Source of the DNA: Candidatus Heimdallarchaeota archaeon | GTDB taxonomy: Archaea > Asgardarchaeota > Heimdallarchaeia > Heimdallarchaeales > Heimdallarchaeaceae | Direction: 5' to 3' | Length of the DNA stretch: 64,000 nt | NCBI GenBank assembly: GCA_021399345.1 | Contig: JAAFKI010000175.1 | Span: 1 to 64,000, forward strand | Part shown: positions 30,980 through 39,392 of the stretch, one piece after another | Layout of the letters: each line of letters opens with the position of its first letter | Numbering within the stretch: the stretch's first letter is position 1 | Program-made: the position numbers and the translations under genes | Notes under the pieces: generated by a model | Told to the model about the DNA's origin: nothing | The model's database searches: none | What the model saw: the letters and a program-made list of their open reading frames with translations, nothing else

Positions 30980-31119
30980 TGGCGAGGCAGCCGGGATTTG
31001 AACCCGGGTCGAAGGAGTTCGGCATTCAATGCAAGACTGCAAGGAATTTGACAGTCCCCCATCATTAACCAGAGATGGTACACAACCTTTCTCTTTAGGC
31101 CAGGCTAAACTACTGCCCC
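30980..31119 (-). tRNA. tRNA-Asp(GTC) with two 31-nt introns (31065-31095 at 21/22; 31018-31048 at 37/38)
   Basis: GGGGCAG/CTGCCTC+GCCA; removing both BHB-bounded inserts gives a normal archaeal tRNA-Asp. Confidence 0.92.
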
Positions 31120-31226
31120 AAGTTTTTATCTCCCGTTTCTTTTCTTACTTTATTTTTTAAATATGTCGGTTTATTCCAAAACAGTTATCGTCTAGTAATA
31201 TTTTGAATTATCATAGTATAAAGTAA

Positions 31227-31463
31227 CTACATGAAATCTTCTAATCCTACTTGTTTCTTGGTTCTCTGAAAATCCTTCAGTTCCTTATCCTTCTGGTCAA
31301 TGAACCATTGTTTAATGAGTTTGGTTGCAGGATCAACAACAGATTTAGGTATCCAGATAGGAGTATCAACAAAACCATCAATGAGAGCAAGAAAAGCTTT
31401 CTCAGTCTCTATATCTACCTTACCTAACAAATAATCTGAATACTTACTCTGTTTCTTTTCCAT
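31227..31463 (-). CDS. Small hypothetical protein with PIP-box-like C-terminus
   Basis: 78 aa; ETEKAFL, WIPKSVV; ends QVGLEDFM. Confidence 0.65.
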   Translation of the reverse strand: MEKKQSKYSDYLLGKVDIETEKAFLALIDGFVDTPIWIPKSVVDPATKLIKQWFIDQKDKELKDFQRTKKQVGLEDFM

Positions 31464-31566
31464 GTCAAAAAGAAAAAGAGATTTGGGTTTATAATTATGA
31501 AGGTAATTGTTTATCTATCTTGTATTATCTCACTTCTCTTATTGAACAAATGTAAGAATCTACAAG

Positions 31567-32367
31567 ATGAAAATCTATTTATCAAATAAAGAAAATCATC
31601 ACAATATAATGTCAATAGATAACTCCAATATCGAAGTGATGCCTGTTAAGTATGATTTCTATAGCAAATTAATGAAAGTTATATTGGATAATGCAAACCA
31701 ATTCAGAAAAGATGCACAATTACTTAGAGAAAAACTTTCCTTTGGACATGCATACTCGTTAGCTATTTTAGGTTTTGAAGAATTGAGTAAATGTTGGTTT
31801 GTTTTTGGTCTATTCCTTGGAGAGTATGAAGCATCTGATGACATTGTTTCTGATATTACTAGTGTTCATCTGACCAAACAAGAATTAGGTTGGCAGATTA
31901 TTGCAATGATTGTTATGATGGAATGGTTTGAGGAAACCCAATTTCAAGATGAAATTCAAGAACTCTTCAAACAGTTGACAAAAGGTGTTATTAATCTTGA
32001 AACTTACACAAAGAAATATATGAAATTTGCAGAAAGGGAAAGTAACTCATCTGATCTTGCACAACGAGTTCTTAAGTTAGAAGAAGTTAGCAAAAAACTT
32101 GAAGCAGATAATAAGTATATGATGAAAAAAAAGAATGAGGGATTCTATGTTGATTTTGATTTAATAAAAAGAAAAATTACAAGTTCCCCTGATAAATTTA
32201 TTTTAGGCGACATACAATTTATTGATACATTCGATGGCTTTTATCTTTATACTGAAGAATTGTTCAAAGCAATTTTAGATAATCTCAAACGAAAAAGTAT
32301 TCAAGAAGCTTTAAAGAATACAAGAGCAATGTTTAGGCGACTCAGAAATCATTTAGTATTAAAATAG
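31567..32367 (+). CDS. AbiV-family (HEPN) protein
   Basis: NANQF..DAQLL..HAYSLAILGFEELSK, H..KQ, GFYVD; start may be ATG at 31609. Confidence 0.8.
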   Translation: MKIYLSNKENHHNIMSIDNSNIEVMPVKYDFYSKLMKVILDNANQFRKDAQLLREKLSFGHAYSLAILGFEELSKCWFVFGLFLGEYEASDDIVSDITSVHLTKQELGWQIIAMIVMMEWFEETQFQDEIQELFKQLTKGVINLETYTKKYMKFAERESNSSDLAQRVLKLEEVSKKLEADNKYMMKKKNEGFYVDFDLIKRKITSSPDKFILGDIQFIDTFDGFYLYTEELFKAILDNLKRKSIQEALKNTRAMFRRLRNHLVLK

Positions 32368-32507
32368 GTTCATAAATGAGATATTCAGTTAGTCAATCTA
32401 ATGTTTTGTTTTACTACAGGGTATTTTTGAGAAACTATTAAATACCTATTTACAGTATTTTAAGAATATTACTTGAGAGATAGCTTGAGATAAGGAGGGA
32501 AATTCAA

Positions 32508-32870
32508 ATGGGTAATAGGGAAGAACATATTTCATTAGGAATGGCAATTGGGGCACCTATTATAATTGGTATGTTGGTAGGATTTGCTGATAGTTTTGCT
32601 GCAGGTTTATGGCAAGCTCTCTTAGGATTATTTCTTTTAGCTGTTGGATCTGTTCTACCTGATTGGTTGGAACCTCCTACACATTGGAATCACAGACAAG
32701 AAAATCACTCTAAAGAAACTCTATATGGAACAGGCATCTTTTCTGCTGTTTCAATTGTTCTAGTTATTCTTCATGACTCGGCATGGATAATATTATTTGG
32801 TTTACTTTTTGGTTACTCTTTACATTTGCTTCTAGATTCTACAACTAAAATGGGATTACCAGATGAATAA
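32508..32870 (+). CDS. Membrane-bound metal-dependent hydrolase (YdjM-like)
   Basis: N-terminal His, GSVLPD, HR..HS, GYSLHLLLD. Confidence 0.85.
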   Translation: MGNREEHISLGMAIGAPIIIGMLVGFADSFAAGLWQALLGLFLLAVGSVLPDWLEPPTHWNHRQENHSKETLYGTGIFSAVSIVLVILHDSAWIILFGLLFGYSLHLLLDSTTKMGLPDE

Positions 32871-33033
32871 TAATTTAATCAAACCCATACTTTGATGATA
32901 GATAGTAAGGTAAGCACTAAAGCAATTAAAGTAAGAAAGAGTTCTTAAAAGTTGAACAAAACGCAATTTAAACCGTTTTAGTAATTAAATACTCACTAAA
33001 AACTTAAATAATTTAACACTAATTTTAAACAAT

Positions 33034-33396
33034 TTGTCTATTGGTGAGAAAAATGAAAAACAGAATTCAGATAATCAACCCTCTATTAAGAAAAGGGAAC
33101 TAACAAGGGAACAACCATTCAAACCTGATGATATTTGTAAAACCTATTGTTCTTTAAGTAATAATAAGCAAGAGTGTTCAAAAGTCAGAAAAGAAGCAAG
33201 AAATGCGTGTTCGTTACTGCTTAAAAGATACTCCGGAAATAGAATAGAACAAGCTATACTTGGGGAAACAGGTTTTTCTTTAGAAGATTTATTGAAGCAA
33301 GTTCTGAAAGAGAAAAAACTGAAAGATAATGACAAAGTAGTCCTTTGTGCACAAAGAGAATTAACTAATCAACTAATGAAAATCAAGGTAAAATGA
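33034..33396 (+). CDS. Hypothetical protein with clustered Cys
   Basis: 120-aa ORF, TTG start, AT-rich upstream region. Confidence 0.5.
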   Translation: MSIGEKNEKQNSDNQPSIKKRELTREQPFKPDDICKTYCSLSNNKQECSKVRKEARNACSLLLKRYSGNRIEQAILGETGFSLEDLLKQVLKEKKLKDNDKVVLCAQRELTNQLMKIKVK

Positions 33397-33419
33397 ATAA
33401 TTTCTAAAAACTAATACAG

Positions 33420-33639
33420 TTATGTTCTCTCCAACTTATTCAAAACACTTTTTATGCGCATAATAAAACTTTCATCAGTTTCTTTTTTGAGAGCTTCTTT
33501 TAAAAGTTCTATCGCTCTAGGATTTCCTTCAAATCCTTCAAGGGTTTCTAATGCTTCTAGTCTAACACTCTCATTTTCATCTTCAAGTGCTTTAATGAGG
33601 TGTTTAACTGCTATGGGGTCAACAAATAGTTTTAGTCAT
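33420..33639 (-). pseudogene. HEAT/PBS-lyase repeat gene remnant with 1-nt frameshift
   Basis: Minus frame reads DPIAVKHLIKALEDENESVRLEALETL..NPRAIELLKEALKKETDE; the ATG at 33639 is one base out of frame across an A4 run. Confidence 0.7.
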
Positions 33640-33714
33640 CTCAATTTTCTCTGATTTCTCTTAGTACGAATAATTATAAATTCAAAGACTGTAGGTAAAG
33701 CTTGAAACCAAACG

Positions 33715-34638
33715 ATGAAAATACTAGTGCTTAGTGATATTGGTTGGTGGAGACGTCCTCCTAAATATGATTGCAGTGATGATAGTCCTTTGTATAGAAT
33801 TCTATCTTCTTACTTAAAAGAGATAATCATGGAATTGAAGCCTTCCTTTATTTTCTTAGGAGGTGACTTGATTGATAGAGTACCAGAACCTCCAGAAGAG
33901 GTTTTTCAAGAGTTAATAGAACTGTTGTATTTCATTAATGATAAGAAAATCTATTGCTTTTTGGTTGAAGGAAACCACGATTATAAATTCTATCCGAGAA
34001 TTGTAAAGAAGATTGAGAAACTGGAATATGTAATAGATATATCAGATAAAACTATACAAATAAACAAATTCAAATTCCTTGGGATTTCGTATCAAACATC
34101 CAAAAAGCTGCCTAAATTACAAGAGCTAATAATGAATAATCCACAGAAAATTGATTTTGTGCTAGCACATGCAGAATTATCTAGAAGAGTTATGCTTTTC
34201 AAACTTAACACTAGATTCATTATTACAGGACATTTCAGATCATATTTTTATCAATTGAGAGATAAGATTATTCTAGCTACGGATGTTTTTCCATACTATT
34301 ATGCTATAGTCGATTACGATGGCATCGAAGATAAAATTGTCCTTTATTATGAGGATGAGATAAGCATTGAAGGGATTCTAAAAGATAAAAATCTTATCAC
34401 TAAAAAAGATAAGAGGAATAAGTATCAAAAAGAATATGCTGAGGATTCCAAAAGAAAGATGTCGCTTCTTATGCAAGCTGAGGAGAGGCAGGATAGCGTT
34501 TCTGATGAAGAAATGGGTCAGATTATTTATAATCTAATGAAGGATGGAATTTCGGAATATCTAATATATGATTATCTAAAATGTAGAATAAATATCTGTA
34601 TACAATGCGGAAAAGTATATCCAAACTTAAAGAGTTAG
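33715..34638 (+). CDS. Calcineurin-like metallophosphoesterase with stop-interrupted C-terminal C2H2 zinc finger
   Basis: LSDI, GGDLID, GNHD, LAH, TGH motifs; CIQCGKVYPNLKS*KEHISSH. Confidence 0.8.
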   Translation: MKILVLSDIGWWRRPPKYDCSDDSPLYRILSSYLKEIIMELKPSFIFLGGDLIDRVPEPPEEVFQELIELLYFINDKKIYCFLVEGNHDYKFYPRIVKKIEKLEYVIDISDKTIQINKFKFLGISYQTSKKLPKLQELIMNNPQKIDFVLAHAELSRRVMLFKLNTRFIITGHFRSYFYQLRDKIILATDVFPYYYAIVDYDGIEDKIVLYYEDEISIEGILKDKNLITKKDKRNKYQKEYAEDSKRKMSLLMQAEERQDSVSDEEMGQIIYNLMKDGISEYLIYDYLKCRINICIQCGKVYPNLKS

Positions 34639-35064
34639 AAGGAACACATTTCTTCTCATAAGAAACTTTAGAACGAATTAATTATTTCTTGATTGAAGTT
34701 CAAGTTCGATGTCTCTTTTTTTCCTTTCCTTTTGCATAGAACTTAAAAACCATCTTCCAGTTCATTGTTCTCTATTTAGCTCATTCCCCAATTGGTTTAT
34801 AAAGGTGAAAACCATGTTTTTAAAGAACTTTGAAGTTTTTACCACTTTTAAAATGCATTTTACAGATATATTACTGAAGCTAGCTCACTTGATATTTATT
34901 TAATCTAGATAGGTATTTTATATAACTCTTCTTCCTTGATTTGGCACAAAATTTCTGTGGTGCTTATAACATCAACACTCTTCTATAATTTAGATAGGCA
35001 AGAATTACACCCGTAGTAAACCCAAACCCGTAATTCTTCGCTTATCACCAAAAAGAAAAAGGAG

Positions 35065-35202
35065 TTGAAAAGAGAAGAAGTTGATTGTCAGGATTTCCAT
35101 TTTGAGAATCTGAAGCAATTTTACACGTAGTACTATCGGTGGTTCCTCTACAGGTTTTAAATGTTAAGACTAGAAGAGAAACCATCGATTACAACTTTTC
35201 AA
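35065..35202. ncRNA. Structured non-coding element upstream of tnpB
   Basis: TTGAAAAG/CTTTTCAA enclosing helix; inner hairpins 35085-35119 and ATCGGTGGTT/AACCATCGAT (35135-35189). Confidence 0.4.
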
Positions 35203-35225
35203 AATAGGTTTCCAAGTTTATTTCA

Positions 35226-36788
35226 ATGAAACAATTTCAGGAAGTGAAATTTATGACTATCGAAGCAAGTAATAAACAAAAACAATCAGCATCTGAAGAC
35301 AAGAATCTGGTAAAACATGGAGAAGTCAAAAGCACAACTCAAGCACCATTAGCTACATTCTATGAGGTTATACCTTTGAGAATCAAGACGGAATTAATGT
35401 CTGTTCGAGAGTGTGAAAGGTTGCGAAGAATAACCGAAAGAGATACTAGAATCATCCAGCACTACCTTAGAATCATCAAACACAATGAGGAGAAAATTCT
35501 ACGAAAAGATGGTAAAGTCAACACTTCCCTTCTGGATAATTTGACCCTAACCACTTCTTTGAACACGAAGAACAAGTTACGAACTTCCGTTCCTCACGAC
35601 TTGAAGAAGCGTTATCCCCGTTGTTCACATGATGAATTCCAAGAATGCAGAGACAAAGCTATTTGGACTTACGAGAGTTGGAAAGCACAGCAAGATGTTT
35701 CTAAAAAGGAACTGAGTAGACCTGAATTCAAGAAGAAAACTCCTCGACCCATGTTCAAAGGAAAAGAAGGCAGAGGTACTTTTCAGATACATTTCAAACT
35801 TGATAATACTGATGCTAGACTTTGGCTGGAGTTAAGGGATTCGCTTGATACAAAACGATCTGACACTCGAACCCATCAGAGACTATGGCTACCATTAGCT
35901 TACTCACCTTACCATGAAAAGAGGTTGAAACTAGAGAACATCAAGATGGTGGAACTAGTATATAAATCCAAAGAACAGCAATGGTGGGCACATTTTACCC
36001 AACATATTTCTGTCCCAAGTTATCAATCCACTCTTTCACCTGCAGTGTTAGGAGTAGATCTGGGAATAAAGAAAACAGCTGTTGCTGTGTTACTTAATCC
36101 TACAGGTAAAGTAATCATGGATGAAATCCGCTTTATCGTTGATAAGGAGAGGCAGTCAAAAATATGGCAACTTAGTAGACAGATCAAAGAAACTCAGAGG
36201 AAGTTGAATAAAAGTCTCAACAACCGTCAGCATACTAAACAGCTTAACAATACACTCTTCCGTCTACGTAGAAGACGACGTTCTATTACAGAACAAGAAC
36301 TAGGATTTGCAGTTAACCAATTGGTTGATTTCATCCTTCAGTTGAAGAAGAGGTATAATCTGTTTGTGTCTGTTGGCTATCCTAAGTATATCCAGAGACG
36401 TCAACCTCGAGGTAGTGGAAACAAATCCTTACGTAAGCAAGTGCATAAGTGGTGTTATCGCTACTTTATCATTAAGCTGAGAAACCAGCTAGCTAAGTAT
36501 GGATTTGAACCGTATCGAGTGGTAGCTGTTAATGAAAGTTGGACCTCTAAAAGATGTTCCAGATGTAATTCTACAAACACTACCCGTACAGGACAAGGAC
36601 AGTTCAATTGCCATGATTACAACTACGAACTAGATGCCGACTTGAACGGAGCAAAAAACATAGGGAAGAGGTTGATTAGGTATGCGTTAAAACCAAACTT
36701 CAGCAGTATCAAAGATCTACTGACAGAAGAATGCTATCCTATACAACACTACAAGTGTTTCCTGCCCTTAGGTCAATGGCTTAAGTGA
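35226..36788 (+). CDS. tnpB: TnpB-family RNA-guided nuclease with rearranged RuvC-II
   Basis: GVDLG (D278), VSVGYP (G384), VNESWTSKRCSRC (E437), DADLNGAKNI (D472). Confidence 0.9.
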   Translation: MKQFQEVKFMTIEASNKQKQSASEDKNLVKHGEVKSTTQAPLATFYEVIPLRIKTELMSVRECERLRRITERDTRIIQHYLRIIKHNEEKILRKDGKVNTSLLDNLTLTTSLNTKNKLRTSVPHDLKKRYPRCSHDEFQECRDKAIWTYESWKAQQDVSKKELSRPEFKKKTPRPMFKGKEGRGTFQIHFKLDNTDARLWLELRDSLDTKRSDTRTHQRLWLPLAYSPYHEKRLKLENIKMVELVYKSKEQQWWAHFTQHISVPSYQSTLSPAVLGVDLGIKKTAVAVLLNPTGKVIMDEIRFIVDKERQSKIWQLSRQIKETQRKLNKSLNNRQHTKQLNNTLFRLRRRRRSITEQELGFAVNQLVDFILQLKKRYNLFVSVGYPKYIQRRQPRGSGNKSLRKQVHKWCYRYFIIKLRNQLAKYGFEPYRVVAVNESWTSKRCSRCNSTNTTRTGQGQFNCHDYNYELDADLNGAKNIGKRLIRYALKPNFSSIKDLLTEECYPIQHYKCFLPLGQWLK

Positions 36789-37124
36789 TTCTGCAAAGAA
36801 TACATCGTTTAGTAAAATTCGGTGTGCGAGGTCAAGAATCCGTCATCTCACTAATTAGACTGATTCGATAATGAGTGACCTTAATCAGGAGATGATTCCT
36901 TTGAACAGCTTGCTGTTCCAGAGACTGGTACTGTATTTTATGAGAGGTTTTTCTTTTCATTACTTACAGTTTCGTACGACGACAATCCATGCCACGCCAG
37001 TTTAGGAGGAGTTTTGAAAGAATCTGCTTGAAAACTTAGGTTTTTGTGTAGAGACTAACTCATCATAGGCCAGGCTTAACTACAAATTAAGTCTGACTAC
37101 AACCTCTCCCTCCTTTTTTCTTTT
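36787..37124 (+). ncRNA. Candidate omega/reRNA scaffold downstream of tnpB
   Basis: Consecutive helices GATTCT/AGAATC, TCATCTC/GAGATGA, GAACAG-CTTG-CTGTTC, GACTGG/CCAGTT, ACTGTA/TACAGT, AGGAGG/CCTCCT, CAGGCTTAA/TTAAGTCTG, then a T tract. Confidence 0.6.
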
Positions 37125-37197
37125 ACACTTGTCGTTTAGTATAACGAGAAACTCAATAGAACATCAACTAACATAGATAAAAAAGAAATTCAATGTT

Positions 37198-37770
37198 TTA
37201 ATCTAACCCAAATTCTACTCTCTTTCGTTCTACATCTTTCATTAGTTCCTGCGCAAAGGTTCTGAATGCATCCTCTACTTTTTCACCTGTTTTTGCTGAT
37301 GTAATAAAGAAAGAATCTTTTGGTATATTTAACTCTTGAATAATGGTATCAATATTTTCTTGTGAAACAGCAATTTGTTCATTTAAATCTGCTTTGTTTC
37401 CTATAAGGAAGTATATTGCATCTTCTTCAACACTCTCTAAACCTTTCTTCCATGCTTTCAAAGAACTTAAAGTGTTATTTCTTGTGAGATCATAAACTAA
37501 AAAACACCCTCTTGCTCCTCGATAGAATTTTTCTCTAACTGATGCAAATCGTTCTTGTCCGCCTATATCACTTATTAGAAACAACACTTCATCATTTTCA
37601 ACAAATAATTGTTTGCTTAGAATGTCTACTCCTATTGTCATAAGATATGATGCTTGGAATCGGTTGTGTACAAATCTAGTAATAAGAGAGCTTTTACCTA
37701 CTCCTGGGTCTCCTAGTAGAACTATTTTGAAAATATACTTCTTGCCTTGCCCCTCGTCTTCAGTCATCAT
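37198..37770 (-). CDS. Rab-like small GTPase (eukaryotic signature protein)
   Basis: FKIVLLGDPGVGKSS, TIGVD, DIGGQERF, YRGA, NKAD, TSAKTG; no C-terminal Cys. Confidence 0.93.
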   Translation of the reverse strand: MMTEDEGQGKKYIFKIVLLGDPGVGKSSLITRFVHNRFQASYLMTIGVDILSKQLFVENDEVLFLISDIGGQERFASVREKFYRGARGCFLVYDLTRNNTLSSLKAWKKGLESVEEDAIYFLIGNKADLNEQIAVSQENIDTIIQELNIPKDSFFITSAKTGEKVEDAFRTFAQELMKDVERKRVEFGLD

Positions 37771-37836
37771 TTTCCCCTTGTCAATTCTCTTTTCGTATTT
37801 TTTTATTAAGTTTGTGCTTGTCTTTGCTTGTTTTTT

Positions 37837-38250
37837 CTAATTATTAAACATTTTAACTAGTTCTACTGCTGTTTCTTCAGCTAATTCTATCTTAGGTGGA
37901 ATCAAGTTTAAACCATCTTCAGGAAATCGAGGTACTAAGTGGAAGTGTATGTGATCAAGTATTTGTCCTGCATCTCTACCATTGTTCTGAATAATATTCA
38001 AGCCTGTAGCTCCGGTTATTTGCTTTAATTTACTTGTAATTTCAGGTATTTTTTTTGTAAAATTCATTTCAGTTTCTGATAAATCGAATATTTGTTCAAG
38101 GTGTTTCTTTGGCACGAACAAACTATGACCTTTTGACATGGGATATATATCTAGAAATACTTTAATTTCGTCATCCTCATAGAGAGTATAGCTTGGCAAT
38201 TCACCTTTCACAATCTTACAAATAAGACATTCTTCATCCATATCAATCAT
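37837..38250 (-). CDS. HIT-family hydrolase
   Basis: CLIC, GHSL.VPK.H, AGQ..HIHFH. Confidence 0.93.
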   Translation of the reverse strand: MIDMDEECLICKIVKGELPSYTLYEDDEIKVFLDIYPMSKGHSLFVPKKHLEQIFDLSETEMNFTKKIPEITSKLKQITGATGLNIIQNNGRDAGQILDHIHFHLVPRFPEDGLNLIPPKIELAEETAVELVKMFNN

Positions 38251-38327
38251 GCTCTCTTCTTTTCCTAGTGGTTTACTTATCTTACTTTTCAGTTTTTTGT
38301 ATTGCAGCTGAAATAGTAAACAAAAAT

Positions 38328-39392
38328 CTATGAAACTTCAACATTTAATCCTTTGTCTTGATATAGGATATAGGCATTACCTCCGGCACGTATTATTGCT
38401 TGGGCAACCTCTTTTTGCTTTTCTGGAGAATAGGCTAGGAATGAACCACCATTTCCGCTCCCTAATAGTTTACAAGCAAGGGCTCCAGCGTTTTTTGCGC
38501 TTAAAATTAATTCTTGCATCTGATTTGTGACATTTTCAAAATAGTTTTGTTGGAAATGGTGATGGGAATCGATTAATTCAACTAGTTCCTCTGGTTTAAA
38601 TTCCTGGTTTTTCATTTTACGATATCCATCTCTTACAACATCCCTAATTCCTAAAACAGCTACTAGTCTTTGTAATTTTTTACTAGTATTTTCTTTATAC
38701 GCTTGATGTACTTCACTAAAGGATGAAGATTGTAAATCAAAGGAAGTATCTCTTTTGTTCATTATTTCTATTCCTTGATTTATCTCCTCTTTCCTCTTTC
38801 TTATCGTTTGAATAGTTTCTTTTTTTGTTAAAGTATCACCAATAACTATACCAGTAAGTTTAGTATCAAGTTTTTCGAGCTTGTAAGGTTCCCTACACTC
38901 TAAATGGAGCATATCTCCAAACACACTGGCATATTGATCCATCATTCCTCCCGGTTCTCCCAAGTTTACTACTTCTGCTAAATATGCATTCCATGCCAAT
39001 TCTTTCTCTGTTAAATTTGAATCTGAGGCTTTATCAAAAAACCCAACCAAGGCCGAACAAAGTGCAGATGAAGAGGAGAGTCCTTTCCCTATTAGGATGT
39101 TGGAATTAACTTCAACGTTCGCCCCAAAGTTCTTTGGAAGATATTTTTGAAAAATATTGAAAACAGAACGAATATAATCTCTTTTTTCGTTTAGTGGCTG
39201 TGTTTCATTACTAAACTTAACTTCTTTACCTAAATCTGTTAGTGTGAATTTAATAATTCCACTATTGTTTGTTTTGCCTTTAACTTCTATTCTTTGGTTG
39301 ACTGCAATAGTTATAACTTCAAGGTTCATGTAATCTACATCTTCACCAAAAAGACAAACTCTTCCAGGAGAAGACGAAATTATCTCTAGCAT
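38328..39392 (-). CDS. GHMP-family sugar kinase (galactokinase-like)
   Basis: PGRVCLFGEDVDY, GKGLSSSSA, GMMDQ, GSGNGG. Confidence 0.85.
   Translation of the reverse strand: MLEIISSSPGRVCLFGEDVDYMNLEVITIAVNQRIEVKGKTNNSGIIKFTLTDLGKEVKFSNETQPLNEKRDYIRSVFNIFQKYLPKNFGANVEVNSNILIGKGLSSSSALCSALVGFFDKASDSNLTEKELAWNAYLAEVVNLGEPGGMMDQYASVFGDMLHLECREPYKLEKLDTKLTGIVIGDTLTKKETIQTIRKRKEEINQGIEIMNKRDTSFDLQSSSFSEVHQAYKENTSKKLQRLVAVLGIRDVVRDGYRKMKNQEFKPEELVELIDSHHHFQQNYFENVTNQMQELILSAKNAGALACKLLGSGNGGSFLAYSPEKQKEVAQAIIRAGGNAYILYQDKGLNVEVS

Follow-up and report, generated by a model that had tools for sequence, protein, structure and literature searches.

In a 64,000-nucleotide (nt) stretch of contig C115 from a 3.27-Mb Asgard metagenome-assembled genome (Candidatus Heimdallarchaeota; G000), here termed the window, a gene for a predicted, divergent TnpB nuclease is followed by a densely structured sequence. 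We consider it very likely that this sequence is the omega RNA (reRNA) belonging to a divergent TnpB family found in Heimdall-group Asgard archaea, with a long scaffold, a guide at the 3' end and a transfer RNA gene, tRNA-Asp, as its target. The original prediction had placed a structured RNA at 36787-37124 and had identified it as a TnpB omega RNA of unusual length, and the scaffold indeed measures 302 nt in the window and 250-342 nt across the family. It had also extended the scaffold to the T tract and suggested that the guide may lie elsewhere, a proposal that the data do not support. Conservation ends at 37063, the sequence that follows is specific to each locus and, in the window, the next 20 nt copy a segment of the tRNA; the order is therefore the usual one of scaffold and 3' guide, followed by approximately 30 nt and the T tract.

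Sequences flanking tnpB on the 3' side were compared for 23 members of the family in the genus, using BLAST and MAFFT (plain alignment A3). The similarity in all 23 loci stops at a single point, equivalent to 37063 in the window, and the sequence beyond differs in each locus. The drop in conservation had been proposed as the mark of the guide, and the segment that follows it matches a tRNA-Asp site. The right end has the consensus A(A/C)TAACTCAT and is of the AACTCAT type in 23/23 loci, two of which carry a single substitution (TACTCAT in L036 and AACTCGT in L013). Six loci of a clade whose TnpB is 44% identical finish in the same AATAACTCAT, and the 3' module is likewise found in that clade. 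At its 5' end, the scaffold overlaps the final 27 nt of the tnpB open reading frame (ORF), including the stop codon, and the hairpin within the ORF (36767-36785) is conserved, also in the 44% clade, and belongs to the RNA. The span of 36787-37124 was hence correctly described as structured but wrongly bounded, as the RNA appears to begin at approximately 36762 and the scaffold stops at 37063.

On the + strand, 36787-37124 has a minimum free energy (MFE) of -87.6 kcal/mol (z -3.26), which was equalled by 0/100 shuffles, compared to z -0.67 with 24/100 shuffles as good on the - strand. The revised span, 36762-37063, gave z -2.50 (2/100 shuffles as good) on the + strand and z +0.48 (66/100) on the - strand. 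A conserved antisense ORF of at least 50 amino acids (aa) was looked for across the scaffold and none was found, and in an Rfam 15 scan of 34000-39000 no model, RAGATH-18 included, matched at E<=1.

Flank alignment combined with covariance models, the route suggested with the original prediction, revealed covariation in the 23 loci. Each domain was tested against 500 shuffles and slid controls; the 5' domain was analysed on the plain alignment A3, while the middle and 3' domains were realigned with the covariance models R2 and R1, respectively. The covariation score was above all 500 shuffles in each of the three domains. The 5' domain comprises the closing pairs, P1, P2, P3, the optional hairpin at 36836-36866 and the putative long-range helix 36871-36876/37058-37063; in this domain, 97.3% of the cells are paired and 10 pairs have changed on both sides, which 0/500 shuffles reach (slid controls, 23-48%), and the middle domain (P6, P7 and P8) has 90.6% of cells paired with 16 such pairs (0/500 shuffles; slid controls, 32-43%). 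The 3' domain (P10 and P11) has 83.6% of cells paired and 12 pairs changed on both sides, a count reached by 16/500 shuffles; its covariation score of 0.327, against 0.197 when shuffled, was matched by 0/500 shuffles, and its slid controls fell far below. When run on plain MAFFT alignments, RNAalifold failed to find P11 and most of the middle domain, a result of misaligned loops that the two covariance models corrected. In many columns of all three domains, G-U takes turns with G-C or A-U, a pattern compatible only with an RNA of the + strand, and this upholds the strand that the G-U pairs had initially favoured. Whole helices are also cleanly lost or extended among the homologues, which again points to a + strand RNA.

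The individual helices (Table) differ in part from those first drawn. Of the initial helix at 36787-36840, the inner stem TACATCG/CGGTGTG is retained as P3 whereas the outer GATTCT/AGAATC is not, as GATTCT pairs locally in P2. Both TCATCTC/GAGATGA and CTGATT/AATCAG (36843-36895) can fold in the window copy without covariation, and the homologues keep the 36836-36866 hairpin, which is cleanly deleted in 5/23 loci. Together, these three unsupported helices (GATTCT/AGAATC, TCATCTC/GAGATGA and CTGATT/AATCAG) score 0.048 against a shuffled mean of 0.052, with 394/500 shuffles as high; the structures with which they compete, P2 and the 36836-36866 hairpin, do covary. The 36903-36918 hairpin with its CUUG loop was recovered as an optional module, P6, which is missing from 7 loci and longer in most homologues, and the multibranch proposed at 36923-37002 as P7/P8, where the P7 pair types are CG (12), UA (7) and UG (4). 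Changes in P10 are mostly one-sided G-U/G-C, and 12 homologues have an extra AUGAAGAA...UUCUUCAU hairpin. The closing helix AGGAGG/CCTCCT straddles the end of the element and is without a fixed partner among the homologues; the conserved helices near the element end are instead 37001-37018, 37023-37052 and 36871-36876/37058-37063.

The last of these, the pairing of AUGAGU with ACUCAU, is a plausible long-range helix. The two strands are complementary in 23/23 sequences and near-invariant (one G-U change), hence show no covariation; the MFE folds of 12 homologues include the helix, which would extend to 9 bp in four short variants (L015, L039, L041 and L030). Guide-adjacent pairing into the core is seen in solved TnpB RNAs (PMC10097598, PMC11061315).

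Table. Coordinates of the tnpB unit, its predicted RNA and the tRNA-Asp locus in the window.
Feature	Position	Strand	Remarks
tRNA-Asp(GUC) gene	30983..31119	-	anticodon-loop intron and 31-nt insertion (31066-31096); Rfam tRNA 31.4 bits
~6-kb island	31120..37117	.	absent from close relatives; ends in tnpB and its RNA
Approximate left end of tnpB unit, with conserved 5' leader	34937..35225	+	similarity to 13 other copies
tnpB gene	35226..36788	+	520 aa; divergent TnpB/Cas12f-like nuclease, predicted
Predicted omega RNA scaffold, 302 nt	36762..37063	+	aligned in 23 loci; covariation and fold z
5' three-way junction	36764..36832	+	closing pairs 36764-66/36830-32, P1, P2, P3
P1 hairpin in final tnpB codons	36767-36785	+	part of 5' domain
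P2 GAUUCU-GCAA-AGAAU	36788-36801	+	GCAA loop; 6 sequences changed on both sides
P3	36803-36824	+	TACATCG/CGGTGTG stem
Optional hairpin GAAUCnGUC/GACnGAUUC	36836..36866	+	18/23 loci; 3 pairs changed on both sides
AUGAGU, 5' strand of putative long-range helix	36871..36876	+	partner ACUCAU, 37058-37063
P6 hairpin, optional	36899..36923	+	core 36903-36918, CUUG loop; 8/11 pairs changed on both sides
P7/P8 multibranch	36924..37001	+	P7 36924-29/36996-37001; P8 36930-35/36965-70; tip 36940-44/36956-60
P10 hairpin UUUAGGA-GGAG-UUUUGAA	37001..37018	+	most conserved sequence block; 94.5% paired
P11 long hairpin	37023..37052	+	11/13 pairs changed on both sides
Right-end motif ACTAACTCAT	37054..37063	+	last six bases would pair with 36871-36876
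Predicted guide	37064..37083	+	antisense copy of 5' part (D-arm) of tRNA-Asp
Spacer	37084..37102	+	no counterpart in close relatives
Polypyrimidine tract	37103..37124	+	T6 run 37114-37119; likely terminator of RNA

The predicted guide reads CATAGGCCAGGCTTAACTAC and matches at 19/20 positions the site CCCCCAT-CATAGGCCAGGCTAAACTAC of relatives, with CCCAT directly 5' of the match; the site in relatives reads ...GTCCCCCAT-CATAGGCCAGGCTAAACTAC. The window genome has a single other match, which spans 31097-31113 with one mismatch in 17 nt and is antisense to the 5' part of the tRNA gene at 30983-31119. The tRNA concerned is tRNA-Asp because its anticodon loop reads GUC; ARAGORN fails to detect this intron-bearing gene in the window and in relatives, whereas Rfam does. 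The 31-nt insertion in the gene sits at the 3' edge of the D-loop, between CATCAT and AGGCC, and is 3 nt from the point where the right end abuts the guide. It is polymorphic, being present in G000, G024 and G006 and absent from G018, G009, G013, G001 and G023, and relatives without it score 38 bits as an Rfam tRNA against the window's score (Table).

Four close relatives (G018, G009, G013 and G024) lack the island, with flanks that are 92-97% identical. In the first three, the tRNA gene, homologous to the window up to 31065 and over a shared 23-nt 5' part, joins 37118 directly; in G024 the homology continues to 31171. Homology to all four resumes only at 37118, while the more distant G020 matches from 37098 and keeps a degenerate tRNA fragment at the same place. 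The edges of the island are diverged direct repeats of the tRNA 5' part and the T-rich region upstream of it.

For other loci, the window genome also provided the uninserted reference. In 10/11 informative loci, the first 12-24 nt past the right end correspond to a host site located at the insertion or close to it. Host bases 5' of eight sites could be read directly (CCCAT, ACCAA, ACCAT, TCCAT, CTCAT, TTCAT, TCTTT and ACCTG), of which 5/8 end in CAT, and the putative target-adjacent motif (TAM) is a consensus of these eight sites only; in four or five cases, the CAT corresponds to the start codon of a host gene on the opposite strand. The target occurs once per genome for L010, L037 and L015, the ordinary case in which the flank is the guide. 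The right flank of the copy on contig C64 of the window genome was searched across the genus and gave no usable empty site, and empty sites at 72-79% identity (e.g. G001:C14) were too diverged for junction placement.

The T tract lies approximately 50 nt past the scaffold end. A run of at least six T within 140 nt of the right end is found in 22/23 loci, in 21 of them inside a tract of at least 12 C/T, against a background of 14% in random 141-nt windows and 30% after long ORFs; only 2/6 loci of the 44% clade have such a run. The T run in the window aligns with the host DNA of relatives whereas 37064-37117 does not, and the empty sites that correspond to L037, L015 and L027 (flank identity of 89-98%) do not have the tract. 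An origin of the tract as a copy of the element's left end was rejected, as G001 has a clean left junction without such a tract. Oligo-T ends archaeal transcription, and the run probably terminates the RNA.

As an omega RNA, the sequence would be transcribed from the + strand, forming the 3' portion of the tnpB transcript, and would start at the hairpin in the last codons. It would fold into a scaffold of approximately 300 nt consisting of the three-way junction, two optional hairpins, the multibranch domain and two 3' hairpins, in which the AUGAGU/ACUCAU helix would return the guide attachment point to the core. A guide of about 20 nt would follow from 37064, and transcription would stop at the T run some 50 nt on. 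The complex of TnpB and RNA would then recognise guide-matched DNA beside a motif ending in CAT, which for the window copy would be the D-arm region of tRNA-Asp in the form that island-free relatives have. TnpB is known for cutting the unoccupied site, a role that such a target fits.

Several observations qualify the omega RNA reading or weigh against it. The invariance of the long-range helix leaves covariation blind to it, and its 3' strand doubles as the DNA end of the element. Four metatranscriptomes contain contigs that span the tnpB of relatives and 36544-37006 at 86-98% identity and nothing past 37006; such contigs carry neither strand nor ends and DNA carry-over is possible, so that they favour neither side. 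The right end itself finishes in TCAT, resembling the motif beside most targets, which raises the issue of self-cutting. The window TnpB alone has CxxY for the second CxxC pair of the zinc finger, with CHDYNY (36580-36600, residues ~453-458) against CHxCxY in 6 other aligned members of the clade; a single TGT-to-TAT change accounts for it, and the protein of this copy may be impaired because Tyr replaces one zinc-finger Cys. Finally, four loci (L027, L009, L012 and that of the window) have as their guide a second copy of a host site instead of plain contiguous host DNA, and such a duplicate is not predicted by the standard model of the flank as guide.

In L027, L009 and L012, the 19-22 nt past the right end recur 47, ~128 and 273 nt downstream, respectively, as the host's own site; the L009 guide copy is 20/20 identical to the allele of the window genome whereas the resident host copy has diverged. 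Three origins of the duplicated guide were considered and set aside: integrase-type crossover in a shared core predicts the flanks in reverse, recombination of the Campbell or gap-repair type with a host fragment on a plasmid would leave one middle segment common to both copies, which is not seen, and a long target-site duplication does not fit L027.

A more specific scheme, which we regard as doubtful, has both the guide and the terminator of this clade carried within the mobile DNA instead of being taken from the flank. An element of HerA ATPase and TnpB would contain a duplicate of a conserved host site, with a pyrimidine/T-tract terminator of its own after it, and would use the TnpB-RNA complex to cut the host site, here tRNA-Asp, in element-free cells or alleles, thereby driving its own integration or retention, and the 31-nt insertion would protect the host copy. 

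In 7 loci, tnpB is directly preceded by a gene for a HerA/DUF87 (TrwB-like) ATPase (e.g. L027:2-1219, L081:6890-8554 and L075:4083-6761), the stop codon of which falls within the conserved left-end motif, and the ORF at 33034-33396 in the window is a remnant of the C-terminus of such an ATPase. This gene order and the remnant suggest a larger ATPase-TnpB mobile element of ~3.9 kb or more; in G001, a 3.9-kb unit of ATPase and tnpB is a clean insertion. Left-hand similarity between the window and 13 other tnpB copies begins at 34937-34942; the left boundaries of the L027, L015, L037 and L036 elements were unreached or blurred by contig ends and rearrangements.

It is improbable that the structure acts as DNA, namely as a right-end recognition region of the transposon or integrative element to which a recombinase binds in hairpin or duplex form, with the tRNA-like 20 nt as an attachment-site remnant left by integration into a tRNA gene and TnpB uninvolved. 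The conserved block does stop exactly at the boundary of the mobile unit and its final bases are nearly invariant; moreover, the island lies at a tRNA gene with a direct tRNA repeat at both edges, as in integrase-driven elements, and the degenerate tRNA fragment of G020 occupies the same place. However, the alternating G-U pairs would turn into A-C mismatches if the opposite strand or duplex DNA were the functional form, and 300 nt with at least 10 covarying helices far exceeds the known end-recognition sites. No integrase was found in the ~6-kb island, and the Y1 transposase (PF01797) was not found in G000, G013, G001 and G027 and found once in G030 (5 genomes searched, 88-93% complete). Resolvase-type or serine-recombinase genes exist in the genomes, none of them adjoining tnpB genes, and a simple core-crossover model predicts the opposite arrangement of the flanks. 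For the last 10 nt, a role as DNA end and a role in the RNA are compatible.

Less probable still is a merely structured 3' untranslated region or terminator of the tnpB mRNA, acting in stability or regulation without a guide, with the tRNA match as a by-product of the island's location: the position after the stop codon, the T tract that follows and the altered zinc finger of the window copy would agree with it, but conservation stops abruptly 50 nt short of the T tract, the sequence past the boundary matches host sites in 10/11 informative loci, and the architecture fits TnpB guide RNAs (PMC10097598, PMC11061315) in its overlap with the ORF end, its tail paired to the core and its variable sequence.

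The 520-aa protein encoded by tnpB matches the Pfam Cas12f1-like TNB domain (E 1.5e-12) and scores 89 bits with the NCBIfam guided_TnpB model, which is under the model's cut-off; its sequence likeness to solved Cas12f and TnpB chains is confined to the C-terminal zinc-finger/RuvC-III part. The clade keeps the RuvC-I Asp, an alternative Glu (VNESW) immediately ahead of the zinc finger and the RuvC-III Asp, and has Gly in the canonical RuvC Glu slot. A rearranged RuvC glutamate is also known from Fanzor1. The window genome has three tnpB copies, in the window, on C64 (82% identical) and on C121 (44% identical), and copies of the family occur in 20/61 related genomes searched, with at most 16 per genome.

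Other genes of the island encode a HEPN AbiV-like protein (31567-32367), small membrane proteins and a metallophosphoesterase, besides the HerA-like ATPase remnant and tnpB. Near the left edge of the island, a 96-nt block (31228-31323) shares 96% identity with part of the G013:C81 island and has weaker counterparts on C64 and C119; these islands may have it in common as a left-end or repeat sequence. In G020, a repeat of ~100 nt (L051, G020:C1, 1252-1360) lies between the tRNA gene and the degenerate tRNA 5' fragment; it has copies on G000 contigs C40, C59 and C19 and may be a small mobile repeat. In G013, a 131-nt miniature derivative of the element is found 37-168 nt past the right end of L038 (G013:C72). 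It consists of a left-end-like start, a pyrimidine tract and the last ~40 nt of the scaffold ending in AACTCAT, and is inserted at a host AACTCAT just downstream of the full copy. The tnpB copies L077 and L079 (G013:C79 and C81) are located at the break points of a rearrangement or mis-join; they join regions that are separate in G000 (C169 and C55), and ~164 bp of C169 is present on both contigs.

The scaffold of ISDra2 is much shorter than the Asgard one. In common with the ISDra2 TnpB omega RNA (IS200/IS605; PMC10097598), the predicted RNA is on the tnpB strand, overlaps the 3' end of the ORF and has a scaffold that ends at the transposon right end, with the guide directly 3' and a guide-adjacent region that would pair to the core. 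It differs from ISDra2 in the optional modules of its scaffold, in an adjacent motif that appears to end in CAT as opposed to TTGAT, in the pyrimidine/T tract after the guide in nearly all copies and in a Y1 TnpA that was not found in most of the genomes searched. The RAGATH-18-derived reRNA of IS607 TnpB (PMC11061315) likewise combines a long multi-domain scaffold, 187 nt in the solved case and with pseudoknots, with a 20-nt 3' guide and no Y1 transposase, and serine-recombinase genes are present in the genomes studied here; unlike IS607, the RAGATH-18 model gives no match, the protein is longer (520 aa) and no recombinase adjoins tnpB. The scaffold length of Fanzor omega RNAs (PMC11423790, PMC11832414) also varies widely (PMC11423790), and the Asgard clade is Fanzor1-like in having a relocated Glu, here just before the zinc finger; unlike Fanzor, it has a prokaryotic host. 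For other, Cas1-associated Asgard tnpB genes in two groups, Altae-Tran et al. (PMC10691335) reported a hypervariable downstream region, and proposed that the variable segment is perhaps a guide, with a conserved element GTTCACTCA downstream. Those loci resemble ours in layout, with an Asgard TnpB and a variable segment after a conserved upstream base; they differ in having GTTCACTCA where a C/T-rich tract at variable distance is found here, and Cas1 as the neighbour where 7 loci here have the HerA/DUF87 ATPase.

The analysis provides a module-by-module map, supported by covariation, of the guide RNA proposed for an Asgard TnpB family with a Fanzor-like rearranged active site, which is the information required to reconstitute and minimise the enzyme. 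The scaffold tolerates the clean loss or growth of whole helices within 250-342 nt. The D-arm of tRNA-Asp is a concrete proposed natural target, and three features, namely this tRNA target, the insertion in the host tRNA and the recurrent pyrimidine tract, are worth following up. That tRNA introns shield genes from mobile elements is an old idea, which the 31-nt insertion in the host's own tRNA-Asp makes directly testable; if the insertion does protect the host copy, nature would offer an example in which an RNA-guided nuclease is blocked by a tRNA intron. The tract after the guide, present in nearly all copies and absent from three empty sites, hints at an extra step by which these elements may settle or may insulate their RNA.

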